Virus record (IMG/VR): IMGVR_UViG_3300020576_002722
Location: 1 to 64,000 of that record
Reading direction: 5' to 3' (one strand)
DNA: 64,000 nt
Origin: a virus
Taxonomy: Duplodnaviria > Heunggongvirae > Uroviricota > Caudoviricetes
Each line of letters opens with the position of its first letter. The first letter of the stretch is position 1. Both the position numbers and the translations under genes were made by a program. The notes beneath the pieces were generated by a model. The model searched no databases, was not told the DNA's origin, and worked only from the letters and a program-made list of their open reading frames with translations. This document shows, in pieces, positions 1-17,794 of this stretch.

Positions 1-3000
1 ACGGCCTTCACCAAGAAGATCGTCAAGAACATCGATGGTAATGAGGTGCCTGACGGGTACTTCAATCCGAAGGTGTCGGCGACCATGATGAAGTACATGA
101 GCGGAGAGAAGTATGGGTTCGGCATCTTGCCGTGGACCGGGTCTCTCGGACGAGCCCCGGTGGTCGAGCTTGCCCAGTCGTTCCAGTTCCCGAACAGGCG
201 CGACGTAAAGGGTGCCGCAGGTCAGTACGGACAAGAGAGTCTCGACTACTCCGATGACGCGTGCTATGCCGCAGACGTGAACAACGTTGTCGGGGAGACG
301 TTCGAGTGCATGACACAGGGATCCGTGGCAAAGGACCCTGATGGTGGCCCGATCAACTTCATTCCCAACTACGGATCGTACTCGCCGTGGCGTCCGAACG
401 ATGTACCCGGTTCGGCAGCCGATAGCTACGGCATCTCGCCAGTATTCACACGACTTCTGAGTGAGTCGGGAATTGCTCCTGCAAACATCCAGACGAATAC
501 GGGTGCCGCATTCGCTCCAACGTATCATTCGCTCGGCGTGCTCGTTGGGCCTGTGACGAACATACCCGAGTGGGTGAAGGCTATTACGGTTGTTCGTACC
601 GCTCCCGCTGAGACGGTAATCTGTGAGGGCGTAGGCGTGTACAACATTCGGAGCTTTGGGTTTGGAGGAGTAGCCGGAAAGGATAAGAACTCCCTGGTGT
701 GCAACTTCCCAGACATGGACAAGGGTATCGTTCCGCTGGCTACGCAGAACGACATCATACAGAATCCAGGACTGTACAAGGTAAGGTTCGTGTCGCCGCA
801 AGGGATATACACGGAGCCGTACGCGTTCTCCGGCGAACAGATCACCATCAATGAGCTTGGAGGGCACTCGGACGCACCGAGCAACACGACCGTTCCCTGG
901 CTCCAGCTCAACCTTGTATCGAGTGGGCTGACCGGAACGTCGGCCGCCTGGTGTCTCGACATGATCTCTTACGCCAGGGTAATGCACGACTCTGGTGATG
1001 TGAATGTTGGGGATACCGGTGTTCACGGGTTCCAGCCAGCATTCGGAGTTCCAGCGGCAGCGAACCAGACAGGGTATGCCGCATGGAGGAACAACGGAGC
1101 TACGTTGAATGGCATACCAACAGATGGGGATGACTACTCATTCTGGCTTCAGGGTGGAAACAACGGTAACACGTTGCTCGACATCGATTCATTCACACCG
1201 AGGACGAGCGAACAGCGCGGTCAGTCGTGGGTGCTGAAGACGGCGCAGGATATCTACTACAATAACGGTCAGATCACGGCCAACAGGACAGCGTTCACGG
1301 ATCCACTGGTAAAGAAGTTCCACCAGCCCGTGTACATGATCCAGCTGATCAAGACGGGTGCCGTAATTCATGACAGCAACACTCAGCCGTACATCAATAC
1401 CGGCGCAACGGTTCTGATGGATTCGTGCATCGGCATCTATAACGGTGTCGACACGCAGTTCGAGTTGATCGATGAAAGGTGGGAGGACTGCTCCAATTAT
1501 CTTCCATCCGACTTCAGGTACATCTACATTGTCGAGCCAGGTGGTGCGAAGAAGATCTACGTGGCACTCAACGGGAACGTGTACTTCACCTTCCCAGCCA
1601 ACCTGACGAACGCGCTGAACAACATAGCCGCCAACGGATTCTGGGTGGCCCCAGACGGAACACAGGTGAACGGATTCTATCAGACGTCGACGACTGGAGA
1701 CAGCCACTTCGTGAACATTGGAGTGTTCGGATTCCTTCCGGCTGTCGGATCCAGGATCAGTGTCCGGTACGATCCAGATGCCCCGATCCGTGCGTTCGGC
1801 GGCGACACCACGATCGCGCCATCGACGTTCGCGCCTATCGACAGGTATACGTCCAGGGATCTCGTGAACATCCTGGACGACGGAAATAAGGGGCTCGCGA
1901 TCGGTGGACTACCTCTGCCGTACGCTGGGTTCGGCATGAACCCAAACTACTTCATGCCAGAGAACGGATCACAGATCGAGGCGATACCTGTGGCCGACTG
2001 GGTGCCGGCGATCCGCCAGTGGGTGATCATGTCTGACTGCGAGACCAGACAGAACCAGGCGTTCGCTGTAACAGAGAACTCGACGACAGAGGCGCTTGAC
2101 AACGCGCAGACGTTCCCGGCCATCCACTACATCAACAGGTCGTTCCATGTAGACTCGACGTACACGACCGCCGTGCAGTACGGGTGGTACAACAACTACG
2201 ACAACGACTACCCCGGAGAGGTGGCGATATGGAGGCTCGGCGGACTCAGGTTCATACCGGAGATCAACTACGACTACCCTAAGAAGCAGGACCCGAACTA
2301 TGTTGGCATCCCGCAGAGCGGATACGTCGAGAGGACCGACTGGTGTACATCGATCGCCGCATCCAACAAGTTCGATCCGTCGCAGCAGGATGTCCCGAAC
2401 CTGAGGACGTTCACCTTCATCAATGTGAAGGATCTGTCTGAGGAGACCGGAGAGATCAAGGTGATCAAGAGTGGTCGTGGACCAGATGCGAACTACATCT
2501 ACGCGTGGACGCAGGATGGAGTGTGCAAGATCCCGACCGACAGGTCCGTGATCAGCAACGTGGACGGAACCGTTCTCGGGACACAGGTCGTTGACGGGTA
2601 CTGGGGCCAGGAGCAGTGGCTCACAAGGAACATCGGGCTTCCTGACGAGATGTGGAGGCTGTGGACGTTCGGGCCCACGCCACCTACATACCAGGACAGC
2701 TTCCTGTGGCCCAACCGGGAGGGATTCTTCATCATGACCGGAGACCAGATCAGGGACATAACCAGGAATCGCATCCTGTCGAGGGTGCGCCCGATCCTTT
2801 CGGTGTCGTCCATTGGCACCGGATACGATGAAAGGCTGGCGTCGGTGTACGATCCCAAGTACAACGAGGTGCTGTTCTCGATCAACCCCAAGGGTGACTC
2901 CGGGCAGTCTAGGACGGTCCTGGTGTACAACGCCCTGAATGGGGAGTGGACGGCCGAGTATACGTACCAGTTCGATGAGTATCTTTGCCACGATAGCAGT

Positions 3001-3396
3001 CTGCTGGGAATGAGGAACTTGACTACATACACGCTGGACGCCGGAACCACCATAGGTGGTAACCTGGTCACCGGGTACGTGGAGGTTCCGATGACCGACG
3101 GATCCGGCGACTACCAGGAGTTCTGTCGCTTCAAGGTGTACGGAGACAAGCCGCACGCCGTGGACATCCTGGACCAGAACGGCATCGTCATGTGCCACAT
3201 GGACCAGACCAACTACGGGATCAACTGGGTCAAGGACTACAACGGCTGGGAGAACTGGGTGGCCAGGTGTGACTTCAATTACGACGTGAACAACCGACTC
3301 GTCCAGGACAACCTGTTCTTCATGAGGATCTACTTCCGTGGAGGAAACAGGACCACGTTCAAGTTCGCTGCCGGTCAACTCAAAAAGATCAAGTGA
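1..3396 (+). CDS. large virion structural protein, 5'-truncated by the window edge (possibly a tail-tube/nozzle-type protein)
   Basis: Frame 1 is open from nt 1, and the track ORF 46..3396 only begins at an internal GTG. The product is over 1,116 aa. It heads a co-directional block followed by two mid-size proteins, a giant protein and a tail fibre, which matches the tail-tubular / internal-core / fibre order of T7-like podoviruses. The product call rests on position only. Confidence 0.55.
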   Translation, partial: TAFTKKIVKNIDGNEVPDGYFNPKVSATMMKYMSGEKYGFGILPWTGSLGRAPVVELAQSFQFPNRRDVKGAAGQYGQESLDYSDDACYAADVNNVVGETFECMTQGSVAKDPDGGPINFIPNYGSYSPWRPNDVPGSAADSYGISPVFTRLLSESGIAPANIQTNTGAAFAPTYHSLGVLVGPVTNIPEWVKAITVVRTAPAETVICEGVGVYNIRSFGFGGVAGKDKNSLVCNFPDMDKGIVPLATQNDIIQNPGLYKVRFVSPQGIYTEPYAFSGEQITINELGGHSDAPSNTTVPWLQLNLVSSGLTGTSAAWCLDMISYARVMHDSGDVNVGDTGVHGFQPAFGVPAAANQTGYAAWRNNGATLNGIPTDGDDYSFWLQGGNNGNTLLDIDSFTPRTSEQRGQSWVLKTAQDIYYNNGQITANRTAFTDPLVKKFHQPVYMIQLIKTGAVIHDSNTQPYINTGATVLMDSCIGIYNGVDTQFELIDERWEDCSNYLPSDFRYIYIVEPGGAKKIYVALNGNVYFTFPANLTNALNNIAANGFWVAPDGTQVNGFYQTSTTGDSHFVNIGVFGFLPAVGSRISVRYDPDAPIRAFGGDTTIAPSTFAPIDRYTSRDLVNILDDGNKGLAIGGLPLPYAGFGMNPNYFMPENGSQIEAIPVADWVPAIRQWVIMSDCETRQNQAFAVTENSTTEALDNAQTFPAIHYINRSFHVDSTYTTAVQYGWYNNYDNDYPGEVAIWRLGGLRFIPEINYDYPKKQDPNYVGIPQSGYVERTDWCTSIAASNKFDPSQQDVPNLRTFTFINVKDLSEETGEIKVIKSGRGPDANYIYAWTQDGVCKIPTDRSVISNVDGTVLGTQVVDGYWGQEQWLTRNIGLPDEMWRLWTFGPTPPTYQDSFLWPNREGFFIMTGDQIRDITRNRILSRVRPILSVSSIGTGYDERLASVYDPKYNEVLFSINPKGDSGQSRTVLVYNALNGEWTAEYTYQFDEYLCHDSSLLGMRNLTTYTLDAGTTIGGNLVTGYVEVPMTDGSGDYQEFCRFKVYGDKPHAVDILDQNGIVMCHMDQTNYGINWVKDYNGWENWVARCDFNYDVNNRLVQDNLFFMRIYFRGGNRTTFKFAAGQLKKIK

Positions 3397-3397
3397 T

Positions 3398-4159
3398 ATG
3401 GCATTCTCAGACCTTCTGATGCACTCGCTGCCGGCCGTAGGGCAGATCGCCGGCGGACCTGTTGGTGGTGCCGTCGGTACACTGGCCGCAGGAGTACTCG
3501 GGCAGTTCGCGGCTGACGGTCAGCAAAAGGCGGCCGACGCCGCTGTGAACGCCATCCCGATGTACGACCCGAAGCAGCTGTCGTACATGAACGACGTGCA
3601 GCGTACCGAGCGTGCGTTCCGTGCAGGCACCGATCCCAATACCACTAACGCTATCAGGCAGGCGGTTCAGGCTGGCGGCCAGGTAGGTGCCAACCTTGTT
3701 CGTGCCGGTGGTACGGACGTGTTCAGCAACCTCCTTCGTGGCCAGGCAGCTACGCAGCAGGCGATCGGAAGGTACTCTGCTGCCGCAGGCGCGGAGGCCA
3801 ACAACGTCATGAACATGCGTGGTCGTCTGGTGGACAACATGGCCGGGAGGGTCTACTCCCAGCAAAGGATGAGGGCCGACGATCTGATGGCTAAGGTTGC
3901 CAGGACGCGCCAAGACGCGAACAACAACATGCTCGCAGCGGTCCCACTTCTTCCGCAGGTTGGACTCAAGAAGAGCACTACTCCGTTTCAGGACATCTTC
4001 GGGCAGCCGGATGGTGCTCTTGGTGGGTCGTGGCGTTCTGAGGGAACCAATGGAGCGATCCCTTCTTCTCCGACAGAAGCAATACAATACCCAATGATCG
4101 ACGGATCGGTGCAATCACCCACATCCGGCTACGACATGGGGCAACAAGTGATAATCTGA
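3398..4159 (+). CDS. virion internal-protein-like protein (Gly/Ala-rich hydrophobic N-terminus)
   Basis: ATG (MAFSDLL...) lies 2 nt after the upstream stop. The N-terminus AVGQIAGGPVGGAVGTLAAGVLG looks membrane-active. The function is inferred from position. Confidence 0.6.
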   Translation: MAFSDLLMHSLPAVGQIAGGPVGGAVGTLAAGVLGQFAADGQQKAADAAVNAIPMYDPKQLSYMNDVQRTERAFRAGTDPNTTNAIRQAVQAGGQVGANLVRAGGTDVFSNLLRGQAATQQAIGRYSAAAGAEANNVMNMRGRLVDNMAGRVYSQQRMRADDLMAKVARTRQDANNNMLAAVPLLPQVGLKKSTTPFQDIFGQPDGALGGSWRSEGTNGAIPSSPTEAIQYPMIDGSVQSPTSGYDMGQQVII

Positions 4160-5823
4160 TGGCAACTGGAGGACCAGAGACACCGCTGGCTACTGGCCAG
4201 CCTGACATTGAGTCGGCCATCTCTGGTGCGGCGGCAACGTCAGTTGCGCCAACCCCAGAGGTTCCGGCGGCCGTAGATCCGTCCGCTGTTGATGCTGCCA
4301 ATGCGCAGGCGCAACAGGGTAGTGGCATCAGGCCGACACTCAAGGAGCCCACGATGCCGAACGCCCGTCTCGGCCCTCTGCGTCTCACCCAGGCGGACTT
4401 CTACGGGCAGCCGAACCCGGATACGATCCAGACCAGGACTGGCCCAACCACTGTGGCCAGCTTCGGTCAGGTGCCGCTCGCTATCTCCGGTATGCAGCTG
4501 GCCGAGATCCAGAAGCAGAGGGCCGAGACGCAGAAGGCCATCAAGGACTTCGACATCAACTCCGGAATCGGTAACGCCCCGAGCCCGTATCAGCGGAACT
4601 TCAAGAACCTGGCCATGACCGACATGGATACCTTCCTTCAGAAGGCGATCCAGCTGCACGGTGGCAACAAGGCAGAGGCCGTGAAGGAGCTGATGGACCC
4701 GACCAGCGAACTGAACGCTGCATGGCGGAAGAGGTCTACCCAATGGGAGGCCATCGGCCAGCAGGCGCAGTTCAAGTTCAAGCAGGCCAGCGACCTGTTG
4801 GATGCGGCCAAGACCGGAAAGATCCAGGTATCCCCGGATGCGATGAAGGTGGCCCAGGAGGCGCTCAATGGTATCGGTGAGTTCGGCGGCCCCAAAGGAG
4901 GCGACGTCATGGAGCTGACAGATACGCTGAAGCGCTTCGATCAGATCATGTCCCGCGAGGCGTACATCCAGGACTTCGCAATTCCCGGAATTGAAGCCCA
5001 CATGGCCGAGAAAGGAATCGCGCCCAAGACCACGCGCAACAAGTACGGCCAGCTGATCACTACCTACGGAAAGGAGAAAGACCTGTCTTTGTTCAGGGAG
5101 CAGGCAGCGAAAGACATGGCGTGGCGCGGCATCGGAGAGGGGAACACGATGGAGGAGCGCATCAAGAACAACAAGAAGGCTCTCGATGCTGCTCTTCCGA
5201 GCGACCAAGAGGTTCAGATCGCGATCACCAACCCTCACGCACCGTCCAGTTCCTCTTCGTCCGCAGACGTAAGGCCGAAGCCGGCCATCAGCACAGGCAT
5301 GTCTCCTGCGTCCAGGTACGACCTTGGCAATACAGGATCGGCTGGACAGGGTGTTCCGTCGACGATGGTTCCAACGCTATCCTTCTCAGAGAAGGTCGGC
5401 GACAAGATGGTCCCTATGGCCCCTCGTGAGTTTGACGGACCAAGTGGCCAGGTCAAGATACAGGCACCCGAGTTCAAGTACATCAGTGGCCACTGGCGGA
5501 TCGTTGGACGCGGTACCGGTACCACCAACGAGGCCAGGGACGTTGTTGGCGCAGCACCGACAAGGGGTTCCATCAGTAGCGCTAAGGGCCGGTCGAACGG
5601 CTCGACCGAGTACGAGGTTACCAAGCAGCGCGAGGGACGAATGGAGTTCCTCGACTACGAAAAGAACATACCCAGGGTAAAGAGTTACTTTGGCGAGGAT
5701 TTCGATATCTGGAATGTCGTCAAGGAGAAGGCGCAACAGAAGGGCCAGGCATGGGATCAGGCCGCATTCGATGCGCTTCCTAACGGTACCCGCCAGAAGG
5801 TAATGGACTACCTGTTCCAATGA
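4159..5823 (+). CDS. hypothetical virion protein (554 aa)
   Basis: Long ORF. Its start overlaps the upstream stop (TGATG) and its stop overlaps the next start (ATGA). I did not recognise any motif. Confidence 0.7.
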   Translation: MATGGPETPLATGQPDIESAISGAAATSVAPTPEVPAAVDPSAVDAANAQAQQGSGIRPTLKEPTMPNARLGPLRLTQADFYGQPNPDTIQTRTGPTTVASFGQVPLAISGMQLAEIQKQRAETQKAIKDFDINSGIGNAPSPYQRNFKNLAMTDMDTFLQKAIQLHGGNKAEAVKELMDPTSELNAAWRKRSTQWEAIGQQAQFKFKQASDLLDAAKTGKIQVSPDAMKVAQEALNGIGEFGGPKGGDVMELTDTLKRFDQIMSREAYIQDFAIPGIEAHMAEKGIAPKTTRNKYGQLITTYGKEKDLSLFREQAAKDMAWRGIGEGNTMEERIKNNKKALDAALPSDQEVQIAITNPHAPSSSSSSADVRPKPAISTGMSPASRYDLGNTGSAGQGVPSTMVPTLSFSEKVGDKMVPMAPREFDGPSGQVKIQAPEFKYISGHWRIVGRGTGTTNEARDVVGAAPTRGSISSAKGRSNGSTEYEVTKQREGRMEFLDYEKNIPRVKSYFGEDFDIWNVVKEKAQQKGQAWDQAAFDALPNGTRQKVMDYLFQ

Positions 5824-8800
5824 GCACACAGACACCTCCAACATTCGCCGACCTGGTAAAGGCGGCGACATCTTCCGATGCGCCACAGGTTCCGCCTGCC
5901 GGCAACCCTGCGTCGTCCGGATCTTTCGATGACCTGGTAAAGGCTGCCACCTCCCCAAAGGAGTCGACCCAGTCTCCCGAGAAAGCTCCGGTAGTCGGGG
6001 CGGAGGCTGGGCTTACTGGATCGGGTACGCGGTCGGATCTGCCAGCGCAGCGGCCGCCAGGTATGCCCGAACTTGTGCGGCCGGATATGCCGCAGGCAAG
6101 CACGCCCGAGCAAGACGCGGCGCTTGATAACATCGGAGGTCCGCCGCAGGAAGGCCAGCAGATCGGAGGTGTATCGCTTATCCAGCAGCCAAAACGCGGG
6201 ATGCGAATGACGCTCCCTACGTACACGATAGGCCAAGACCTGAAGGTGCGAGAAGTGCGTAAGCCATCAATGGCCGAGGACTCATTTGTCCGCACACAGC
6301 AGCGGGAGAGTGAGCGCGCAAAGGAGGCGATGGCCAAAGAACAGGCGGCGAGTGAATGGCGCAGGCAGCTTGATCCGACCAAGGAGGATGACCCGCAGGT
6401 GCGCGATCGCATCATGGGCGAGAAGCAGGCCCTTGATGAGCAGCTATCGCTTGCCAACCAGTATGATCCGGTCGCCCCTGATCAGCGGGGAGTCTTTGCC
6501 GGGTATTTTGAGCAGCCACAGCCGCACGATATGGGGGGCTATGTCTTTGACCAGCGGGACGACAAGATCCTGAAGGATTACGTGCAGCACTTGCAAATGC
6601 ACGGAGATGGCCAATACAAGACCTCGACGACACTCGGTGCATTGCAGGCCGGAAGAGAATCGGCCATCGACCGCTTTGCGGATTACTACAAAGACGCACT
6701 TCAGACCCAGACGGATGCGCTCAACGGCCGCGTGACGCGATTGTACCAGATGCGCGAGCGGGGTGCCGACCCACAAATGCTTCAGCAGGAGGCTGCCGAC
6801 ATTGAGGCCGGATACGAGTTCGTGCAGGCGCGCATGGACGACTGGGTGAAGAATGCGCCGAAGAGCGAAGTGCGCAAGGCTATTGAGCAGCGGCAGAAGG
6901 AGACGAATGAGGAGTATGACCGCATCAAGGATGACTGGTTCACGCCATTGTATGCCACAAAGAAGGGATTGCATGCGGCGCAGCTTGGATGGAATGAGAT
7001 GCTCTTCGGGTCGGCGGCAGGCATAGCTCGCGCCTTCGGAGACAAGGAGAACTACGATTGGTCGGATGACGTGTCCGACTACGTGGATCGCGCCACCAAG
7101 ATGAACGAATCGGCGCTGCCTACCGAATGGCAACAACCGTTTTCGCGAACGGTGAAGAGCCCGATCAGCGGTAAGGAGACGACCAAATACAACATCTTGC
7201 CGAGCCTGATTCGTGGCGGCGGCGGCATGGCCGCACTGATGGCTACGGGCAATCTTGCGGCGGCTGGTGGTCGTGCGCTCGGTATGGCACTGGGACGCGG
7301 AGTAGTCGGGGCTGCCGGAGGTGGCGCGAACGTAGCGCTATCCGAAGCCACCATGACGGGAGTGGGCCGAGCGTCCGCCCTGGCAGGAGAGCTTCCTGGA
7401 TATGGACAGAATGCAGGCTTCACCGCAGGCATGTTCTTTCCGGAATACGAGAGCTATGTGCGACAGGCAATGGATGGTGGCGTACCCGAGAAACTCGCCT
7501 CGGATGCTGGCCTGTTCTATGCCCTTGGATCCGCGTACATCGAACGCCTGAACCCACAGTTGTATGTAGGCGGAAAAAAGGCATTCCGCACCGCATTTAC
7601 GCAGGCTATCAGGGATGGGAAAGGTCCGAAGGCCGCGCTCGGTGATGGGCTGCGGCAAATCGGGATACAGGGCGGGAAGGAGGGAACTGAGGAGTTGATG
7701 CAAGGTGAGTTGATGCGCAAGACGAACCTTGCCGTGAATATGCTGACGGGGGCGGACCTCGAATCAGCGACCACACTTCGCGAGAAGATGAACGAGTTCG
7801 GTACCGGTGCCATCCTCGGCAGCATCGCCGCACTACCCAGCAATGGCGTTGCGCGACAGAAGCGCACGTTGGCGGAGAAGGAATCGCTCGCCTTTGCTGC
7901 GGAGTATCCCGAGTTCGCCGCTGAAGTCATCCGCAGGGACGTTCCTGAGGCGCAGCAGAAGGAGTTCCTCGACAAGCTGGAGAAGCTGAATAAGCTGTAC
8001 GTTGGCAATGGACTGACGGACCTTCCTGTCGATAATGCCGATCGCGTTGCTCAGGCGCTTGCCAAGAAGAAGGATCTACAGGAGCAGATCAAGAAGGCTC
8101 CTATCGCTGATGCGCTGCGTTCAGCCAAGGGTGACCCAAGGGAGGTTGAGGTCAACAAGTTGAATGTTGATGTGCTCCGTGAAATGAATGTTCCAGAGGA
8201 TGACATCGCACTGGTCTTGGCGAGCGAAGGTGTGATAAACCTTCCTGACGGAGCCAAGGTCACAAAGGGTGCTGACGGCAAGCTGACCCTTGACATAAAG
8301 GAGCCCAAGGAGGGAGAGCCGGCCGTCAGTAAGGAGGACGTTCTGTCGGGCCTGGTGAAGCAGGTTCATGGTATCGCTGGAGAGAGGACGACTGCTGCCG
8401 CCAAAGAAGCCAAGAAAGCTCCTGACAAAGATCCTGACGAAGAGGTAGAGATCGCACCGGTTGGTGACGCCACTGATCTGGATGCCGCGCTAGCATCGGT
8501 TACCCCAGGAATGAACAAGGCCCTTGACTCCGAAGTGGAGGCCGCAGCCAAGTCGCTATCCGGGGTTGGCGTCAAGGTTGTTGTGCATGATGACATCAAG
8601 TCATTCGCTTCTGCATTCGAGCAGGCCGGCGGATCGAAGTCGGTCGACCACCTGAACCACGAGGGATTCTACGATCGAGGTGGCCGTACTATCCACATCA
8701 ATCGCACCAATAACAGGTCTGGACTTGCCGCTCACGAGGGTGTTCACGCCCTGTTCATGGGCGCACTGTCGGATGTTGCTAACGGCAGGCAGATCATTGC

Positions 8801-11800
8801 GGAGGCCGCCAGGCAGGTAATGAACGAGTCGCCAGAAACGAGGTCATCTATTGCCAGGTTCCTTGAGTCGTACGGTGGGGCCATTCGTAAAGAGGATGGA
8901 TCGATCGATATCGAGGCTACCGTAGCGGACCCGAAACTGGCGCACGAGATATACGCAGAGTTCGTTTCCAGCGTGGCCAATGGTACCATCAAGCTGAACG
9001 GTGGACTTCGCACCTGGCTCAAGGACATGTACAACAAGATCATGGCCACGCTCGGTGTGTCCATGAAGTTCGACCCGAAGAGCGACGACGACTACATCAA
9101 GCTGGCTGCTGATCTTGCGAGCGCCATGAAGACCGGTCGCGTGATCAGGGCTGCGGAGAATGTTGCGGAGAATACAGCACCGGCACTCAGCGTACGTCGT
9201 GCATCAGACCTCGCCCAGCAACTAAACATCGCATCCACCGGGGCCGAGAAGGAGTTCTTCGGGAAGACGTGGCCTGGCTTGCTCAGGCAAGTAGGCAATG
9301 TATTCAAGCCTACCAAGGCTGGGTTTGAGGCTGCTGCCGATCTGGCCGTGAAGGACGTTGAAGAGTTCACCAGGGAGAATCCGAAGTACCAGGACTTCTA
9401 CAACAAGGATTGGGCACTTGCTGTGGCTATGCTCAATGATGCGTTCCCGATAACCAAGGAGCAGCCTGATCTGGTTCTTGCGTTCAGGGCTATGTCCGGA
9501 CTTACGAGTCCACAGACGTCACTTGGCCAGAATATGGTTGAAGCTGTATCTGCATTCGATCACTGGCTGAATAACGGAAGCTTCGATGCTGTAAAAGTAG
9601 TACCAACAGAGAAGGGTAATTTCTCACTCAAGAAATCACCGTTCAGTCTTGGTGGAAAGACAGCAACGAACAAGGCCAGGTCCCTCAAGGGTCTCGGCAA
9701 GCTGATAGATGAGAACGGAGTTGGAAAGGCTATTGAGATACTGAAGGAGCCTGTGTCCGCAAAGGAACTCAATGAGTTCAACGGGAGCCTTGGGTACAAG
9801 AGCGCTGTCGGAGGCATGAAGGCCGTGAAGAACGTGGTCTTGTCTGCTACTGGGCAGAGCGATAAGGTGCCAAGGATGTTCGTGTTCGGACCAAAGCTCG
9901 GTGCCTACACACTGAACTCGCTTGGTGATGGAAGGTTTACGACTATCGACATCTGGGAGAGCAGGTTTATTCGTTCATACTTCCCGAGGATGTTCGCGAG
10001 CGCCGGAGGAAAGATCCTTAACAACAGCACTGATAGCGATATCTTTACCGAGTTCATAGAACAATTCGCAAAGGCTTTCAGGGAAAGGAACGGATTTGAC
10101 CTTGACCCGTCGGCGTATCAAGCGATGCGCTGGTACACTATGATCGACGCTGCCCAGAAGGCAGGGTACACAAAAGCACTCACAGATGGAACAGTCTCAG
10201 ACTACACAGCAGAGGCCCTCGGAAGGGTTAAAGGACACGTTGTTCCTGGATATGCTGGCCGAGGTGGCTTCGACAGCTATCAAAGCAATGATCCAGAAGC
10301 AGAAAACTATGTACCATTCAGTATCCGCCGAGGATCTCCCGGTGGCGACACAGGAGGGAGGGCCGAGCCAGGAAAGAACCTGATACCTAAGGATATCAGG
10401 AAAAACCTCACCAGCGATGGCGACGGTAGCTACTTGTTCTACCATTACGGTGAAGACCTGAATGGCGGACGCATCAATCCAAAGTATGCTGGAACCGGGG
10501 CTGATAAAGGTACCAGGAACGAAGGAAGGAACAACAATGTATCCATGTACTACACGAAGCCTGACGAGCGGGAGTCGATGGTATCTGGAGATGTTCACGT
10601 TGTCAAGGTTCCCGAATACAAGGTGTATCCGTTCAATACCGATCCACTTGGCCTGTACGACAAGGCAGAGAGGATGTTCAGGAAGGACTACGGAGACTAC
10701 ATCGACTTCAGCCCCGTGAAGCAGGCTGACTACATGGGCCCGCTGGCTGCGAAGGCCGGATTCGACATGATGGTGGCCCAGTGGTCAAAGTTCCCGTTGC
10801 GCGGTGAGACGACCAAGGCGCTCAAGTGGGATCGCGAAGCTACCGACAAGGCGCGTGATCCAGCGTTGTCCACCGGATCACAGAAGTTCAACGACATCGC
10901 CCGCGCACTGATCGCTGCCGGCCACAACACCAAGGCCAAGGCCAAGGCGTATCTGAAATCGAAGGGGCAGGACGGGATCATTGATGCTGTCATCGAAGAG
11001 ATGGGGCGCATCCTTGAGGCGCAGCGCGAGATCCGCAAACGCAATGCGGCCGACAATAAACTGTCTGGAGAAACGACCACTCCGTTGCAGAAGCAGATCA
11101 TCGACGACTCTGGACCCGGACAGAACAGGTCTATGATCACTGTCGATGAGCGTATGCTGCTGAAGGACCGCATCAAGCGTGAGGCGCAGCTCGCTGCACA
11201 GTCAGCCCGCAAGGCAGCGACGGCCGCTCGCAATGCAGCCGACCTGGCGCAGACGCACACCGATCAAGGGTACAGGCAGGGCCTCGCCGAGGGTCAGCTT
11301 GCCGGCGAGATATCGGGCAAGGCTCAGGGTCGCAAGGAGGGTGCCCGTGAGGGAGCGGCAGAGGCCGCCCGTCAGCGTGACCTGTTCGTGAAGAGCGTAC
11401 GCGCCCATCTATCGGAGCTTGGCACCAAGTTTACGGAGGCCAAGACGAAGGCCATCATGACCAGGGCCGTGTCGGTGAACCCGACAAACAGGAACCAGGT
11501 CGAAAGATTCTTGGCCTATCTGGATGCGAAGATCGACGAGGCCAACGAGGCGGCACTCGGCAGCGCCGTGGACAGGATCATCGAGCTGACCAACCCGTCA
11601 CGGTACAAGCAGACCAACGAGTCTGGCATCCTGAAGGGGAAGATCGATGACCGCGTTCGCAAGCTGCTCGGGGTGATCCACTCGGCAGTCAAGGGAATGA
11701 CGCTCGAAGAGGTGTCCGACAAGATCGACGCCATCGACGCAGCGCTTTTCTCTCCAGACGCTGATGTGGCCCTTCTGGAGGACCAGCTGGAGGCGTATCG

Positions 11801-14081
11801 GATCGCCCACGGTGCCCTGTCCGGTGATCCGGAAGGCGTGGCCGGTGCGGAGGAGGCAGTGAAGCAGATCATCGCAGAGGGTCGCAGCAAGTTCCGCGAG
11901 GTGCTGGCCGCCAAGCACGAGCGTTACGTGGCCATGAGGCAGGATGCCATCTCGGCCATCACTGGCGACAAGGGTATCAAGTCAGGGTTCGAGGAAGTGA
12001 AGCTGGAGGAGAAGAAGCGCAACTTCCTAAATCACATGCTCGACGGGATCGGATCGTACCTCGACATGAACGAGGGACTCCGTACGCTGCTCGACAAGAT
12101 CGACAAGTCAGCTAGGGGCGGAGATCCTTGGAGCGGCAAGCTGGACCAGTTCTATCGCAAGGTGGCCAACAGCCGCAACACGATGAACACCAGGGCCATC
12201 TCCACGCTCGACGAGATGCGTGCGAAGCTGGAGGACATCTACGGCGGGAAGAAGGAGGTTGCTCGCGCCGTGAACGAGAACTCAAAAGTGAAGTCTCTCG
12301 GGAACTTCACCGACCTGAATGGCAACAACGTGGAGATGCTGCTGTCACAGAACAGGGCATACTACCTGTACAACCTGATGAAGAGCCCGGAGAACGAGGC
12401 TACATTCAGGGAGATGGGATTCACGGACGAGATGAAGAACGCCGTCGTTGACTTCATGACACCGGAAGTGAAAGAGTGGGCCGACTGGCAGACCGACGTG
12501 TTCTACAAGAACATGTACAATGATGTCAATGAGGTGTACAAGGGACTCAACTACATTGATCTACCGAAGAACAAGTACTTCACGCCTATCAGGCGCGTTG
12601 GCGTTGATGACTCTGCACCTGTTGAGGTGGGAAAGTTCCAGCGCAGCGCTGCCGGTGTAGTGAACGGATCACTGAAAGAGAGGACCGGATCCACGAAGCC
12701 GTTCGATCTGACGACGGATGGAGACAGCGTACTGTACCAGTACGTCGCTGCGATGAATCACTACATCGCATTCGCTGAGACTGTGCGCGATCTTAACGCA
12801 ACGTTCGGATCATCTGATGTGCGCAAGGCTATCTCGCAGAACGCCAACTCCAAGGATAACGATATAATCTCAGGGTTCATTGACGCGCTTGCGAATGACG
12901 GAAGGAATAGGGCGCTGTCGATAGGATTCTGGCAGAAGATACGCGGACTGCACGCAACAGCAAAGCTGTCACTGAACATGGTGGTCGCACTGAAGCAGCT
13001 GTCAGCGATGCCGGCGTACATGACCGATCTGTCGCCGAAGGACTTCGCTGTCGGCCTGATGGACTTCATGCGCCACCCGATCGAGGCGTCCAATATCCTG
13101 ATGGAGAGTTCGTACATCCAGGAGCGATACAAGAGCGGGTTCGATCGCGACATGGCCATAGCTATGGCTCGCGACTACCAGAAGGCGTTCTCTGGAAAGA
13201 GCACCCTGATGGACAAGCTGATGTTCAACGTGCGCTGGGGCGACAAGGCCGCAGTGTTCTCCGGCGGATGGGCGGTGTACAAGTACCATCACGATAAGGA
13301 GATCAAGGCTGGAAAGAGTGAGGCAGAGGCCAAGCGCATAGGTCTGTCCGAAATGGACGAGGCCACCAAGATGTCGCAGCAGTCTACCGGCACCGAGGAC
13401 TTGAGCGCATTTCAGAGGGCTGGAGAGGCATTCAAGTGGTTCACGATGTACAAGACGAACCCTATGGCTTTCTTCCGCCAAGAGCGCAAGGGCGTCAGGG
13501 ATATGGTTCGCGGTCTCAAGTCCGGTGACAAGACGCTGGCCGGAGATGGGTTCCGAAGGTTTATCGTGTACCACTTCGTACTCCCGGCCGTATTCCAGTT
13601 CGTGGTCAATGCACTTCCAGGCGTACTTACGTCTTCGGACGATGACGACGACAAGGATATGCTCAGGGCCCTAGCTCTTGGATCCATGAATGGATTGTTC
13701 ATAATGGGAGACTTCATGGAATGGATAGGCGATCGACTAACTGGTAAGCCGTGGGCTACCCACAAGGGGTCGCAGGCGGTGGAGGTTCCTATCTTCAAGT
13801 CCATGTCAGACATGATAGCGTCCATAGGCGATGTCATTGAGAGTTGGAAGAATGACGACGATGAATTGACCAAGAACATCATGGAGACGCTTCTTGAGGC
13901 TGGCGATGCGTCAGGCATACCAGCCAAGAGGGCGGCCAAGATGATGGAGAATGGAAGGTTCACGATGGAGTACTGGGACCAGTTGACGCCTGGCGAGCGT
14001 GCGGCCCTGATTTCGGGGTACGATCCACGGGAGATGGGCGACGGATACGGAGGACACCTGCAAAACCCTGAGAATCAGTAA
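5820..14081 (+). CDS. giant (2,753 aa) virion-associated multidomain protein with a zincin HExxH motif, coiled coil and C-terminal TM segments (ejection / polyvalent-type protein)
   Basis: Uninterrupted 8.26-kb ORF. HEGVH lies at nt 8733-8747 (aa 972-976, context LAAHEGVHALF). There is an N-terminal tandem peptide repeat F(A/D)DLVKAATS, a long Ala/Gln/Arg coiled coil near nt 11150-11400, and hydrophobic segments (FIVYHFVLPAVFQFVVNALPGVL, LALGSMNGLFIMG) near the C-terminus. The gene sits between tail genes and the fibre gene. Confidence 0.85.
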   Translation: MSTQTPPTFADLVKAATSSDAPQVPPAGNPASSGSFDDLVKAATSPKESTQSPEKAPVVGAEAGLTGSGTRSDLPAQRPPGMPELVRPDMPQASTPEQDAALDNIGGPPQEGQQIGGVSLIQQPKRGMRMTLPTYTIGQDLKVREVRKPSMAEDSFVRTQQRESERAKEAMAKEQAASEWRRQLDPTKEDDPQVRDRIMGEKQALDEQLSLANQYDPVAPDQRGVFAGYFEQPQPHDMGGYVFDQRDDKILKDYVQHLQMHGDGQYKTSTTLGALQAGRESAIDRFADYYKDALQTQTDALNGRVTRLYQMRERGADPQMLQQEAADIEAGYEFVQARMDDWVKNAPKSEVRKAIEQRQKETNEEYDRIKDDWFTPLYATKKGLHAAQLGWNEMLFGSAAGIARAFGDKENYDWSDDVSDYVDRATKMNESALPTEWQQPFSRTVKSPISGKETTKYNILPSLIRGGGGMAALMATGNLAAAGGRALGMALGRGVVGAAGGGANVALSEATMTGVGRASALAGELPGYGQNAGFTAGMFFPEYESYVRQAMDGGVPEKLASDAGLFYALGSAYIERLNPQLYVGGKKAFRTAFTQAIRDGKGPKAALGDGLRQIGIQGGKEGTEELMQGELMRKTNLAVNMLTGADLESATTLREKMNEFGTGAILGSIAALPSNGVARQKRTLAEKESLAFAAEYPEFAAEVIRRDVPEAQQKEFLDKLEKLNKLYVGNGLTDLPVDNADRVAQALAKKKDLQEQIKKAPIADALRSAKGDPREVEVNKLNVDVLREMNVPEDDIALVLASEGVINLPDGAKVTKGADGKLTLDIKEPKEGEPAVSKEDVLSGLVKQVHGIAGERTTAAAKEAKKAPDKDPDEEVEIAPVGDATDLDAALASVTPGMNKALDSEVEAAAKSLSGVGVKVVVHDDIKSFASAFEQAGGSKSVDHLNHEGFYDRGGRTIHINRTNNRSGLAAHEGVHALFMGALSDVANGRQIIAEAARQVMNESPETRSSIARFLESYGGAIRKEDGSIDIEATVADPKLAHEIYAEFVSSVANGTIKLNGGLRTWLKDMYNKIMATLGVSMKFDPKSDDDYIKLAADLASAMKTGRVIRAAENVAENTAPALSVRRASDLAQQLNIASTGAEKEFFGKTWPGLLRQVGNVFKPTKAGFEAAADLAVKDVEEFTRENPKYQDFYNKDWALAVAMLNDAFPITKEQPDLVLAFRAMSGLTSPQTSLGQNMVEAVSAFDHWLNNGSFDAVKVVPTEKGNFSLKKSPFSLGGKTATNKARSLKGLGKLIDENGVGKAIEILKEPVSAKELNEFNGSLGYKSAVGGMKAVKNVVLSATGQSDKVPRMFVFGPKLGAYTLNSLGDGRFTTIDIWESRFIRSYFPRMFASAGGKILNNSTDSDIFTEFIEQFAKAFRERNGFDLDPSAYQAMRWYTMIDAAQKAGYTKALTDGTVSDYTAEALGRVKGHVVPGYAGRGGFDSYQSNDPEAENYVPFSIRRGSPGGDTGGRAEPGKNLIPKDIRKNLTSDGDGSYLFYHYGEDLNGGRINPKYAGTGADKGTRNEGRNNNVSMYYTKPDERESMVSGDVHVVKVPEYKVYPFNTDPLGLYDKAERMFRKDYGDYIDFSPVKQADYMGPLAAKAGFDMMVAQWSKFPLRGETTKALKWDREATDKARDPALSTGSQKFNDIARALIAAGHNTKAKAKAYLKSKGQDGIIDAVIEEMGRILEAQREIRKRNAADNKLSGETTTPLQKQIIDDSGPGQNRSMITVDERMLLKDRIKREAQLAAQSARKAATAARNAADLAQTHTDQGYRQGLAEGQLAGEISGKAQGRKEGAREGAAEAARQRDLFVKSVRAHLSELGTKFTEAKTKAIMTRAVSVNPTNRNQVERFLAYLDAKIDEANEAALGSAVDRIIELTNPSRYKQTNESGILKGKIDDRVRKLLGVIHSAVKGMTLEEVSDKIDAIDAALFSPDADVALLEDQLEAYRIAHGALSGDPEGVAGAEEAVKQIIAEGRSKFREVLAAKHERYVAMRQDAISAITGDKGIKSGFEEVKLEEKKRNFLNHMLDGIGSYLDMNEGLRTLLDKIDKSARGGDPWSGKLDQFYRKVANSRNTMNTRAISTLDEMRAKLEDIYGGKKEVARAVNENSKVKSLGNFTDLNGNNVEMLLSQNRAYYLYNLMKSPENEATFREMGFTDEMKNAVVDFMTPEVKEWADWQTDVFYKNMYNDVNEVYKGLNYIDLPKNKYFTPIRRVGVDDSAPVEVGKFQRSAAGVVNGSLKERTGSTKPFDLTTDGDSVLYQYVAAMNHYIAFAETVRDLNATFGSSDVRKAISQNANSKDNDIISGFIDALANDGRNRALSIGFWQKIRGLHATAKLSLNMVVALKQLSAMPAYMTDLSPKDFAVGLMDFMRHPIEASNILMESSYIQERYKSGFDRDMAIAMARDYQKAFSGKSTLMDKLMFNVRWGDKAAVFSGGWAVYKYHHDKEIKAGKSEAEAKRIGLSEMDEATKMSQQSTGTEDLSAFQRAGEAFKWFTMYKTNPMAFFRQERKGVRDMVRGLKSGDKTLAGDGFRRFIVYHFVLPAVFQFVVNALPGVLTSSDDDDDKDMLRALALGSMNGLFIMGDFMEWIGDRLTGKPWATHKGSQAVEVPIFKSMSDMIASIGDVIESWKNDDDELTKNIMETLLEAGDASGIPAKRAAKMMENGRFTMEYWDQLTPGERAALISGYDPREMGDGYGGHLQNPENQ

Positions 14082-14093: not shown

Positions 14094-17000
14094 ATGTTCG
14101 CCCTCAACGTATCCCTCTGCGGATCCTGTAACCAGCTATCGTTCGAGGATTCGACCGGGCTCTTCTCCATTGACAACTCTGGAGGCTACAACTCCGGGGA
14201 CGCCGACACCCCGCAGTCGCCCAGCGACTTCGACACGTATGTGCTGACCATCTGGAAGCCTGGTGCCGACCTGGATGGGCCACCGACATACACTCTGGAC
14301 CTACTGGCCAACGTGCCGAACCCGGACTCTGACTACCACTTCACCTGGACCATTACGGCGTCTGCCCTGGGGATCGATCCGATCGTGTCCGGCATCTGGA
14401 ACGCCCACGTTGAGGCGGCCTACGATCAGGTGACCTATACGGCCGACTACGCCGGCTTGATCGACAGCGATATCCTGGACAAGCTGGACGTGGAGATCAT
14501 GCGTGCCGGTCCCGTTCGTGGCCACCTGACCAAGTGCCAGATCAAGCTCATGAACCTCAAGTCCCTCCTGTGCGCAGCGCACTCCGCTGCTGGCTGCAAC
14601 AAAGCCGACATCGCTCAGGAGATCATCAATTACCTGTATCAAAACTTCCGTCGCTGCTGCGGCTGGCCGAGGGCCGGTAACAACTGTGCATCTGCGCCGT
14701 GTGGATGCGGTAGTCGCGCGCTCCCCGCTGGCCGTCCCCGTCGCAACGGATCGGTGTGGTATTCTGGTATCGGAGCACCGTCTGCTTCCCTCGGCTCTAC
14801 CAGCGACTGGTACGTCGACACCGAGCACAACGCCGACACGCCCGTTGGGTTCGACACCTTCTACCAGAAGGTGGCCGGCGTGTGGACGCTCAAGTTCGTC
14901 ATCGAAGACGGTGCCCCAGGTAATGATGGACCTGCCGGGGCTGATGGCGCTCCTGGGTTCACTACTCTCCTGGCCAGCTCACTAAATCCGGCTATCGGGT
15001 TTACGCAGCCAGCAGCTGATGGATTCAGCTATACACTCGCCAACGTAGCTGACAATAGCTGGATCGCCATCGGTGCCCCGCTATTCATTGGTAACGGCGG
15101 CCAGTACATCGTGGTCGGGAAGGCCGGTGCCAACCAGATCTCGATCGTCAACCTCCAGAACACCGCCATCATCGGATCGTATCCAGGAAACGTTCCTCCC
15201 GGAAGTACGGTCCCTATCGGAGCTATCGTGGCCGCAAGTGGATTCCAGGGCCCAGCTGGTCCAGGATCTTCCTTCAGCGGAGCCTACTCCGATCTGACCG
15301 GAATCCCGTCCAGCTTCAACCCGTCCGCTCACGCTCCAACGCACACCGCAGGAGGCAGCGATCAGATCACCGTTGTCGAGTCGATGATGTCCCTGTCGGA
15401 CAACACGCTCAACAACGCAAGCACGACCAAGCATGGCTTCCTTCCGAAGCTGTCCGGCAATGCAGCGCAGGCGCTTCTCGGTAACGGAACCTGGGGCGCG
15501 AGCGCAGGGTATACGGACGAGCAGGCGCAGGACGCTGTCGGAAACAACATGTTGGACACCAGCACGGTGGATGCTGTGTATACCGACGGTGCTCCATCGA
15601 ACCAGTTCAGCTGGAACGTGAAGCCTGCCGGGATCGCGCTCGACACCCTGGGCAGTCCGACCGACAACACGAACCTGAACGCGACCACCACGTACCACGG
15701 CCTCCTGCCCAAGCTGAATGGATCCACCGGTCAGTATCTGCGCGGCGACGGTACATGGGGTACCCCGGCCGGCAGCGGGTCGGTGACCAACTACCCGGAC
15801 CTGGCTGACGTGGAGGCGATCGCCACTGCGTACAATGAGACGATCCAGGTGAACGGAGATGGCACCGGACTGGTGAACCGCTTGGTCAGCAACCCGACGA
15901 TCGATCTCGGTGCGATGTTCAACATCCGCCCGAAGACGTACGCCAACATGAACAACATCGATCAGTGTGGCCCGGACCTGGGCATGGTGATCGCCGACTT
16001 CATCGACCTGTTCCCGAACTACTACGACGTGCTCAGTGTTGAGCTTGGGTGGTCCGATGCGGACATCCTCAGGCTGACCTACTTCACGGCCGCCTTCAAT
16101 GAGATCGGATTCCTCGCATGGAACGGCGGATCCGGCTACGCGTACACGCGCTACAAGATCGCCCTCCCCGCTGGCAAGCTCTGGTACAACTCCGAGCTTC
16201 GCATGGGGCAGAACATCGTAGAGGGACAGGGTTCCTTCTACTACGGCGGATACGGCAACACGGAGGTGGCCTGCACGCACACCGACTGGAAGAGCCTGTA
16301 CGGATCACAGAACGACGGCACATACCTCGGATTCTGCCCGTGGACCTACGCCGGTGAAGAGGGCGCATCGATCGATCCGGTGGCCACACTCGGTGGATCC
16401 AGCTGGTGCCACAGCACCATGATCAAGGATCTCTGCATGTCTGGCACATGCACCGACTTCAACGACTACCGCTATCGCGAGGCCGGGTTCAACTATTGGG
16501 GTCCTGGTGAGAACTCCGGTGCGGAGAACTGCCTGTTCGTACACTTCAATGACTCGGGCATCGTAGTCAGGGCCCAGTGCGCCTATGCGTACGCCAACCA
16601 CTGCTCCTTCTTCTCGAACGGGGTCAGCGGCTACGGCATCGGTGGTATCTCTCGCGCTACGTTGAGTCTTAGCGCTTCGGGTGACCTGAACCCGTTCATG
16701 TACTACACCTATCGTTGCGGAGAGACGAACACGGCACCCAACGCAAGGGCTGCCGTCACTGCGACGACAGCGAACTTCATTCAGCCGGCCGTATCCGGAA
16801 CGGTGGCAGTTGCCGTAGCGGATACTGGAACCCTGCGTATCGGGCAGCCGTTCTATGTGACCGGTGGAGGATACTATGAGATCACCAACATCGTTGGACT
16901 CACGCTGACGCTGGAGAACACTGGTGACTACCAGAACGCAGCTCCTGGTGCATCGATCCTGTCCGGAGCAGTGTGCAACTTCCCATACTGGCCCAACACG

Positions 17001-17575: not shown

Positions 17576-17794
17576 ATGAGCATCAACAACAAGATCCCAG
17601 GAAAGCAAGACTTCATCCGTGCCGGCATCAGCTGGGACCGGGTGGAGCTTGCACGTAAGGCGGTAGCCGAGTCCGAGGCGAAGCTCGCCGAAGTGAGGGC
17701 CGACGACAAGCTGTCCAAGGAAGAGAAGACGGCCAAGATCAAGGCCATCAAAGACGCCCACACCGAGTACATCCTTTCGATCCGGAACAAGTGA
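17576..17794 (+). CDS. small coiled-coil protein (72 aa)
   Basis: ATG (MSINNKIPGK...) lies 2 nt after the fibre stop. The rest of the track ORF upstream overlaps the fibre gene. Confidence 0.55.
   Translation: MSINNKIPGKQDFIRAGISWDRVELARKAVAESEAKLAEVRADDKLSKEEKTAKIKAIKDAHTEYILSIRNK

Follow-up and report, generated by a model that had tools for sequence, protein, structure and literature searches.

A giant cysteine-free polyvalent protein, probably packaged and ejected, closes a podovirus-type small-medium-giant gene cassette

Introduction

The window analysed here is the whole stretch of 64,000 nucleotides (nt) from a virus of the Caudoviricetes (IMG/VR record IMGVR_UViG_3300020576_002722, positions 1 to 64,000). 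Its longest open reading frame (ORF), at 5820-14081 on the plus strand, has 2,753 codons. Searches of Pfam, PHROGs and PDB sequences with the whole 2,753-amino-acid (aa) protein gave no useful match, and megablast against phage genomes gave no match. What kind of protein does this giant gene encode, and to which system does it belong? A preliminary description of the window had placed the gene where podoviruses encode internal or ejection proteins. Our analysis points to the same position. The giant is probably a virion-packaged, ejected polyvalent protein and the third cassette member of a podovirus. This judgement covers the overall picture, and we rate any single step of the mechanism proposed below much lower.

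Results

The giant gene closes a small-medium-giant cassette

Features of the cassette in the window are as follows.

5820..14081, plus strand: giant gene, 2,753-aa cysteine-free protein, uninterrupted ORF from ATG to stop, closing the small-medium-giant cassette
3398..4159, plus strand: small cassette protein, 253 aa from ATG (273 aa from GTG at 3338), cysteine-free, with an N-terminal glycine-zipper-like hydrophobic segment
4159..5823, plus strand: medium cassette protein, 554 aa (489 aa in the JGI call, start 4354), cysteine-free

Corresponding cassettes of other phages (small, medium and giant protein) are the following.

L010 (related phage, 56.9% GC): 182, 580 and 4,322 aa
elemo: gp20 205 aa, gp19 449 aa, gp18 3,694 aa
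Gundel_1: gp72 225 aa, gp73 511 aa, gp74 2,482 aa
Vibrio phage MZH0603: 167, 542 and 1,902 aa
N4: gp52 150 aa, gp51 644 aa, gp50 3,500 aa
T7: gp14 196 aa, gp15 747 aa, gp16 1,318 aa

The intact frame agrees with the preliminary description, which had called this gene the largest of the window. Its status as a single gene is backed by a codon-usage score trained on the same strand, and the identical 2,753-aa product comes from gene calls on three metagenome assemblies, one JGI and two Logan, that are independent of each other. The window (57.6% GC) shares 24 kb with the locus L001 at 99.75% identity overall, and the 8,262 nt of the giant gene contain no mismatch. Variation between the window and L001 clusters in neighbouring large genes (865-890, 14665-14741 and ~19031), and the giant gene is spared.

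The gene order in the window is the 1,503-aa protein, the 253-aa protein, the 489-554-aa protein, the giant, a 1,159-aa protein and a DUF2793 fibre-like gene. The giant is the third and largest gene of its cassette, as in podovirus ejection operons. The cassette recurs in four other phage lineages (L010, elemo, Gundel_1 and MZH0603) and mirrors gp52/51/50 of N4 and gp14/15/16 of T7. Thus, the position proposed in the preliminary description is upheld in both related and unrelated podophages. Ejection proteins are matched across phages by size and synteny (PMC8954989). By position, the 253-aa protein is the analogue of T7 gp14 and N4 gp52, and the 489-554-aa protein is the analogue of T7 gp15 and N4 gp51. 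The N4 trio consists of an outer-membrane complex, a periplasmic tunnel and a last-ejected giant (PMC13434306), and Gundel_1 has podoviral morphology (PMC8776804). Homology between L010 and the window extends to the preceding protein (1,606 aa in L010, E 1e-215), the small protein (E 7e-26) and the medium protein (E 4e-12). The gene context and the synteny also fit what is expected of a polyvalent protein, which would be encoded among late or virion genes and be delivered with the DNA.

Upstream of the cassette, window positions 46-3396 encode the C-terminal 1,116 aa of the 1,503-aa protein, which contains cysteine and is found at full length at L001:3066-7577. It lies directly upstream of the cassette and corresponds in position to elemo gp22 (1,493 aa, annotated 'virion structural protein'), which is located two genes upstream of the elemo trio with gp21 between them. 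No Pfam, PHROG or PDB sequence match was obtained for the 1,503-aa protein, which may be a tail or plug component.

The cassette proteins lack cysteine

The trio contains no cysteine in 3,580 residues, compared with 186 in 13,433 residues (1.38%) in the other ORFs of the window (P about 2e-22). The flanking proteins in the window have 14 (the 1,116-aa fragment) and 24 (the 1,159-aa protein) cysteines. The trio is also free of cysteine in L010, elemo and Gundel_1, and in MZH0603 the only cysteine is in the small protein; large flanking proteins in the other phages, which have 5-24 cysteines, are not depleted. Much the same holds for known ejection proteins. N4 gp50 (3,500 aa), gp51 and gp52 have no cysteine, nor do the C2 domains of six further Schitoviridae. 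In T7, gp14 has a single cysteine and gp15 and gp16 lack it. For the other structural proteins of T7, 2-5 cysteines are usual, and the gp9 scaffold is likewise cysteine-free. Among 154 proteins of the giant's family, 130 are without cysteine, and the overall cysteine frequency is 0.009%. As the reason behind these counts, we infer selection on loosely folded proteins that cross a narrow channel and the oxidising periplasm. A cysteine-free trio may be a general signature of ejected proteins, and it could serve as a cheap predictor of them.

A zincin-like domain links the giant to the virion RNA polymerase of N4

8505..9188, plus strand: zincin-like metallopeptidase (MPTase) domain, aa 896-1123, with HEGVH at aa 972-976 (nt 8733-8747)
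8946-8960, plus strand: candidate third metal ligand E1043 or E1047 in the helix AHEIYAEF, from conservation in two alignments

HEGVH is the sole HExxH in the 2,753 aa, against a chance expectation of 0.023 from composition. We searched a five-sequence profile of the domain against 1.84 billion cluster representatives (clusters at 50% identity). This revealed 897 representatives at E ≤ 1e-3, with 520 still found at E ≤ 1e-10. The majority have lengths of 2,000-3,700 aa, and one has 3,694 aa, a length equal to that of elemo gp18. In 152 homologous domains, H972, E973 and H976 are invariant (152/152), and H923, H959, N961 and G1106 are conserved at 89-99%. The preliminary description had named loss of the motif in homologues as a result that would speak against it, and the opposite is seen. 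A downstream helix carries the motif NEExLAEL in the family, and AHEIYAEF is the version in the giant. E1047 is 93% conserved in the 152-domain alignment and E1043 is invariant in a second alignment made with MAFFT. Either residue is therefore a candidate for the third metal ligand.

The AlphaFold2 model of the domain (predicted local distance difference test (pLDDT) 81, predicted template modelling score 0.73) has the zincin core, that is, an N-terminal helix, a three-stranded sheet and an active-site helix, and HExxH lies on helix 90-105 of the model. Individual family members have weak Pfam matches solely to zincin families (DUF5700, SprT-like, M91, M78 and Tox-MPTase4), and IrrE ranks first among the PDB profile matches (E 0.034). 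The anthrax lethal factor/Pro-Pro endopeptidase zincins (M34, ATLF-like) and the metalloprotease domain of ArdC likewise have HExxH and a downstream Glu helix. In contrast to these, the model of the giant has extra helices between the HExxH helix and the Glu helix, and there is no significant match at the sequence level.

Comparison of the domain by hhalign with C1 of seven Schitoviridae virion RNA polymerases gave a probability of 92.3% (E 5.5e-7, 125 columns). The alignment takes in the strand that precedes the motif, both the HExxH and the Glu helix, and the helix after them, and comparison with N4 gp50 alone picked exactly the HELVH site of gp50. On this sequence evidence, the MPTase domain is homologous to the HExxH-bearing C1 domain of the N4 virion RNA polymerase. 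HEGVH thus does lie in a zinc-metallopeptidase module of polyvalent type, as described before, and the domain is of zincin type with predicted peptidase activity.

The giant is a chain of conserved modules

The preliminary description had found more than 2,000 aa of the protein to be without a recognisable motif. Comparison with homologues resolves the same length into conserved modules. A word-indexed protein search gave five matches for the full protein and one for aa 880-1700. The giant is a chain of at least six conserved modules with low-complexity linkers between them. The six modules are each common to different giants: the MPTase domain and the C-terminal module (C-module) are found in P0002 and P0003, the N-terminal module (N-module) in P0004, DUFA in P0005 and P0006, and DOMB in elemo gp18.

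5844..5954, plus strand: two-copy N-terminal peptide repeat, FADLVKAATS at aa 9-18 and FDDLVKAATS at aa 36-45
5955..6224, plus strand: Pro/Ser/Thr/Gly/Gln-rich low-complexity linker, aa ~46-135, read from the translation and analogous to the KKK and acidic/Ser-Thr linker of the family
6465..8312, plus strand: N-module, aa 216-831, common to the N-terminus of P0004 (4,322 aa, with AAA_34 and SNF2)
9198..10259, plus strand: DUFA module, aa 1127-1480, with the conserved motif FGPK.G...N..G....T.D.W.SR
10407..10859, plus strand: DOMB module, an alpha/beta domain, aa 1530-1680, common to gp18 of the Flavobacterium podophage elemo and 17 other giants
11055..11519, plus strand: Ala/Arg/Gln/Gly-rich long-helix region, aa ~1746-1900, with helices of low pLDDT, previously described as a coiled coil
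11517..13952, plus strand: C-module, aa ~1900-2711, ~810 aa and mostly helical, a conserved terminal module of phage polyvalent giants
13548..13727, plus strand: hydrophobic helix (aa 2577-2606), acidic loop and helix (aa 2614-2636), with Asp5 at aa 2607-2611 (nt 13638-13652)

Residues 1-215 consist of the two-copy peptide followed by a Pro/Ser/Thr-rich linker. Both copies of the repeat were found within the first 45 aa, where they had been noticed before, and they are identical at 24 of 30 nt. We scored the first 110 residues of each giant against shuffled controls. A two-copy repeat exceeded the 95th percentile of the controls in 72% of 116 full-length family giants; in an internal control region of the same 116 giants, 7% passed. 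The repeat sequences are lineage-specific, the copies lie about 27-35 residues apart, and KKK with an acidic or Ser/Thr-rich linker usually comes next (among P0007-P0154). The FxDLVKAATS pair is the giant's own version of this family-wide repeat. The architecture is kept while the sequence varies, and this suggests that the repeat is a bivalent docking signal.

The N-module matches P0004 with 32% identity over 631 columns (BLASTP, E 1e-56). Its Gly/Ala-rich, glycine-zipper-like stretches (aa ~455-545 and 660-678) are moderately hydrophobic, with a hydropathy of 1.0-1.15. P0004, encoded at L010:8001-20969, fills the same slot of the cassette in L010. This 4,322-aa giant keeps the N-module, has AAA_34/SNF2-type modules and has no detectable C-module. 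The comparison of P0004 with our giant at the equivalent slot is one of cargo and tail swapping at one locus.

DUFA recurs in P0005, where it directly follows the HExxH domain (32% identity), and in P0006 (41% identity), which also bears LPD38. A profile of DUFA gave no match to PDB sequences, and its only Pfam match was that of one member to DUF7178 (1.2e-5). The DOMB profile matched neither Pfam nor PDB sequences. Invariant residues of DOMB include H1542, Y1578-T1579, E1585, D1608, W1655 and R1661, a set that would be compatible with an enzyme. DOMB is partly well modelled within the 1,200-aa model of aa 1530-2729. DUFA and DOMB are candidates for new early-infection effectors.

In the same model, long helices are predicted at low confidence at aa ~1776-1923. 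In part, this agrees with the putative ~80-aa Ala/Arg/Gln coiled coil described before. The long-helix region has a weak Yae1_N match (aa 1817-1846, E 7.7e-4, below the gathering cut-off) and weak similarity to P0004, and it is present in seven other giants.

The C-module shows 26% identity to P0002 and P0003 over ~890 columns and is similar to Gundel_1 gp74. Of 153 HExxH-bearing proteins that had been retrieved, 47 were found by local iterative searches to have the C-module at the extreme C-terminus. The model of aa 1530-2729 is nearly all helical, with a mean pLDDT of 61 and values of 70-94 over much of aa ~2100-2520. Search of BFVD with the C-module gave 60 matches at E ≤ 1e-3 (best 5e-27) over ~830-870 columns, with a template modelling score of about 0.4. 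Every one of the 60 represents the C-terminal part of a giant viral protein, with names such as ART-PolyVal-like, PolyVal ADP-ribosyltransferase, 'Large polyvalent protein associated domain', MuF C-terminal, nuclease, N-acetyltransferase (GNAT) and 'Structural protein [Tenacibaculum phage Gundel_1]'. In eight diverse members, no Pfam family was found that covers the C-module.

Hydrophobic segments were judged by Kyte-Doolittle hydropathy alone. The preliminary description had noticed an Asp5 run flanked by hydrophobic helices near the C-terminus. DDDDD is indeed preceded by a strongly hydrophobic helix (aa 2577-2606, 1.83) and followed by a weaker one (aa 2614-2636, 1.11). By this measure, aa 2577-2606 and the Gly-rich aa 459-507 (~1.0-1.1) are membrane-capable segments. 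Most of 48 homologues of the C-module keep the arrangement of helix, acidic loop and helix; the loop has a median of six Asp/Glu, and the consensus is YH..MP..FQ(Y/W)V..GLPG.L, 5-8 Asp/Glu, D(L/M).RAA..GN.NALF..GD......KPW. The 1,902-aa protein of Vibrio phage MZH0603 has DDDDD at the equivalent point, one HEFGH and no cysteine. Two testable candidates for a packaging, ejection or membrane-insertion signal are the N-terminal two-copy peptide and this C-terminal hydrophobic-acidic motif.

Discussion

Proposed mechanism and alternative explanations

As an ejected protein, the giant would be packaged in the capsid together with the two smaller cassette proteins. After receptor binding, it would exit last through the tail channel of ~3-4 nm as loosely folded beads on a string, and its lack of cysteine would prevent disulphide trapping in the periplasm. 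It might stay at the inner membrane via the hydrophobic-acidic motif, the Gly-rich N-module or both, while the other modules would reach the cytoplasm. There, the MPTase domain would either cut the chain into separate effectors or attack host proteins, and both actions have been proposed for polyvalent proteins in general (PMC5512222). DUFA and DOMB would act as early effectors, and the N-terminal repeat would dock to a cassette or portal partner. The preliminary description had regarded the protein as a reservoir of uncharacterised effector domains, and this idea gains from the finding that its modules are shared combinatorially with giants bearing ART-PolyVal, SNF2/methylase-type or GNAT domains. 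A bolder version, which we offer only tentatively and consider rather doubtful as a whole, is that the C-module is a previously undescribed, widespread inner-membrane anchor or conduit of podovirus ejectosomes and forms with the N-terminal peptide a generic chassis for interchangeable effectors, that DUFA and DOMB are new enzyme families, and that absence of cysteine is a general signature of ejection.

Several results weigh against a packaged and ejected polyvalent protein. Among the 53 ORFs of at least 90 aa in the window, Pfam and PHROGs recognised no portal, major capsid or terminase at E ≤ 1e-4, and therefore the structural-module context rests on synteny with distant phages. In phmmer comparisons, the small and medium proteins of the window did not match their counterparts in Gundel_1 and elemo, and the 554-aa medium protein matched no PDB sequence. 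The giant homologues of Gundel_1 and elemo are annotated 'structural protein', and these labels are database annotations; a search of the literature yielded nothing specific on what underlies the elemo label. For the zincin-like domain, the Pfam model MPTase-PolyVal matched neither the giant at E ≤ 1 nor the MPTase segment. N4 gp50 is packaged unprocessed (PMC5512222), so that protease activity is uncertain even in the best-studied relative. The C-module raises similar points. Foldseek of the aa 1530-2729 model against PDB gave nothing significant (best E 0.25). The module was undetected in the related giant P0004, and also in P0005. Its identity with LPD38 was ruled out (hhalign probability 1%), and its comparison with N4 C2 was not significant (hhalign 2.2%, E 0.022).

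Could the giant be ejected and yet be a structural component only, with a non-catalytic HExxH that serves regulation or assembly and other modules that build a conduit and are not effectors? The C-terminal region of the unprocessed N4 virion RNA polymerase is needed for encapsidation (PMC5512222) and regulates the polymerase allosterically (PMC13434306), no catalytic family can be assigned to DUFA, DOMB or the C-module, and the model is mostly helical. However, H, E, H and the downstream Glu are kept in 93-100% of 152 domains, as is typical of an active metal site, and the invariant His, Tyr-Thr, Glu, Asp and Arg of DOMB are typical of enzymes. Furthermore, relatives on the same chassis bear bona fide enzymes (ART-PolyVal, SNF2 and GNAT). 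A structural role only is thus conceivable and, in our opinion, unlikely. A different place of action is implied if the protein is a late-expressed intracellular anti-defence polyprotein that is neither packaged nor ejected and acts in the producing cell or on progeny DNA. P0004 and P0005 bear methylase/helicase-type AAA_34 and SNF2/ResIII modules like those of anti-restriction proteins, and packaging of the giant is something we infer. The location of the gene between large structural-type genes and the fibre-like DUF2793 gene, the cysteine-free signature shared with proven ejection proteins, the homology to the C1 domain of ejected N4 gp50 and the structural annotation of the Gundel_1 and elemo homologues all argue against it, and we give this explanation little credence.

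The preliminary description had also suggested a polymerase and proposed a search for two-barrel (DxDGD) or single-subunit motifs. Giant size, the equivalent position in the cassette and a C1 domain as in N4 gp50 would suit a highly diverged virion RNA polymerase, either N4-like single-subunit or crAss-like two-barrel, and most of the protein is unannotated. However, it has no DxDGD; its only DxDxD strings are DKDPD in a linker and DDDDD in the acidic loop. There was no Pfam RNA_pol match at E ≤ 1, and phmmer at the same threshold matched no PDB chain, in a set that included the N4 mini-vRNAP (3q0a). The unassigned segments are about 150-350 aa long, whereas the N4 polymerase module has about 1,100 aa (PMC5512222). 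The suggestion of a polymerase therefore did not hold up, and we judge it very improbable. A tape-measure or tail-length protein, or a scaffold, is just as hard to credit. The giant is very long and helix-rich and has Gly-rich hydrophobic segments, but isolated relatives are podoviral, with ~23-nm tails (PMC8776804; 'vB_FspP' naming), and the giant has globular alpha/beta domains and a modular architecture that is shuffled among homologues. Homology to a tape-measure protein, which would have overturned the preliminary description, is not seen in Pfam or PHROGs, where no tape-measure family was found. An ejected polyvalent protein thus remains the reading that we prefer.

Other observations in the window

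Downstream of the cassette, the stretch 14665-14741 in the ORF 14094-17573 has 17 mismatches to L001 within 77 bp. The L001 version makes a stop codon and splits the gene into 190 and 967 aa, whereas the window reads through to 1,159 aa. This may be a hypervariable or recombinant patch in a cysteine-rich tail/fibre-type protein; no reverse transcriptase was seen in the window. At ~19031, the window differs from L001 by an indel of 4 nt. In L001, L002 and L003 the DUF2793 fibre-like gene encodes 762 aa; in the window the indel divides it into the overlapping ORFs 17791-19095 (434 aa) and 19017-20075 (352 aa). An assembly error might account for this, as might a strain variant or a frameshift. 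The remainder of the window (~20,000-64,000) encodes nicotinamide phosphoribosyltransferase, phosphoribosyl pyrophosphate (PRPP) synthetase, pyrophosphatase, RNA ligase, a Macro domain and Band_7/SPFH. It also encodes a holin, HNH endonucleases, a DnaA_C-like domain and a metallophosphoesterase.

Comparison with known systems

N4 gp50 is an ejected protein with a membrane-associated N-terminal domain, the HExxH-bearing C1 and a large helical C2 (PMC13434306). Like the giant, it is the product of the last and largest gene of a small-medium-giant ejection cassette, is free of cysteine and has a single HExxH, in the C1 that is homologous to the MPTase domain. It also has a large helical C-terminal part (C2) with no known structural relative and a beads-on-a-string organisation (PMC13434306). 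In contrast to gp50, the giant has no RNA polymerase module, and its HExxH is central and not C-proximal, with DUFA, DOMB and the long helices coming after it. Similarity to the N-terminal domain of gp50 was not detectable, and homology of the C-module to C2 was undetected.

T7 gp16 is likewise the product of the third and largest gene of its cassette, upstream of the fibre gene, and T7 gp15 and gp16 are cysteine-free. Proteins like gp16 have conserved C-terminal hydrophobic helices, for which crossing of the inner membrane and refolding after passage have been proposed (PMC8954989). Unlike gp16, the giant lacks a lytic transglycosylase domain and bears a zincin; it is twice the length of gp16, and the two have no similarity in sequence or fold. 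Homology of the giant to a proven ejection protein concerns one domain, namely the MPTase domain and C1 of N4-like gp50.

The phage-type polyvalent proteins (Iyer, Burroughs, Anand, de Souza and Aravind 2017; PMC5512222) have several (2-15) domains per polypeptide, which are shuffled among relatives, and the giant fits this description. It also fits in having a zincin MPTase hub and, judged by synteny, a gene beside putative virion genes, and its relatives bear ART-PolyVal, LPD38 and AAA_34/SNF2/methylase modules. By Pfam, ART-PolyVal occurs in two of 17 full-length giants (E 1.3e-15) and LPD38 in P0006. Differently from this class, none of the curated Pfam models (MPTase-PolyVal, ART-PolyVal and LPD1-40) matches the giant at E ≤ 1, and its C-module, DUFA and DOMB have no Pfam model save for the single DUF7178 match.

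Among isolated phages, gp74 of the Tenacibaculum phage Gundel_1 (2,482 aa) shares the C-module, the cassette and the cysteine-free trio with the giant, and gp18 of the Flavobacterium phage elemo (3,694 aa) shares DOMB, the cassette and the cysteine-free trio. The elemo phages are named as podoviruses ('vB_FspP'). The identity is only 22-28% and is confined to single modules. Other modules differ: Gundel_1 has a weak, sub-threshold GNAT-like match (E 0.002) and elemo has DUF3293. The hosts of both phages are low-GC Bacteroidota, in contrast to the 57.6% GC of the window. A typical family member (P0042), compared with 50,697 deposited phage genomes, finds matches in Elemovirus and Gundelvirus only, and the C-module of the giant has additional matches in two Vibrio phages and in one contig of a faecal phage. 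The family is thus large in metagenomes (897 clusters with the zincin domain) but occurs in few groups of deposited phage genomes.

In summary, an 8.3-kb 'dark' gene can be assigned to the gp16/gp50 slot of a podovirus ejection cassette and to the polyvalent class. By analogy, the giant is most likely comparable in function and position to N4 gp50 minus the polymerase, and to T7 gp16. This kind of protein is already known; the C-module, the N-terminal two-copy peptide and the cysteine-free trio appear to be undescribed in the literature examined or in Pfam. The link to C1 suggests that ejected carriers of a common type bear many different cargoes, of which the N4 polymerase is one.

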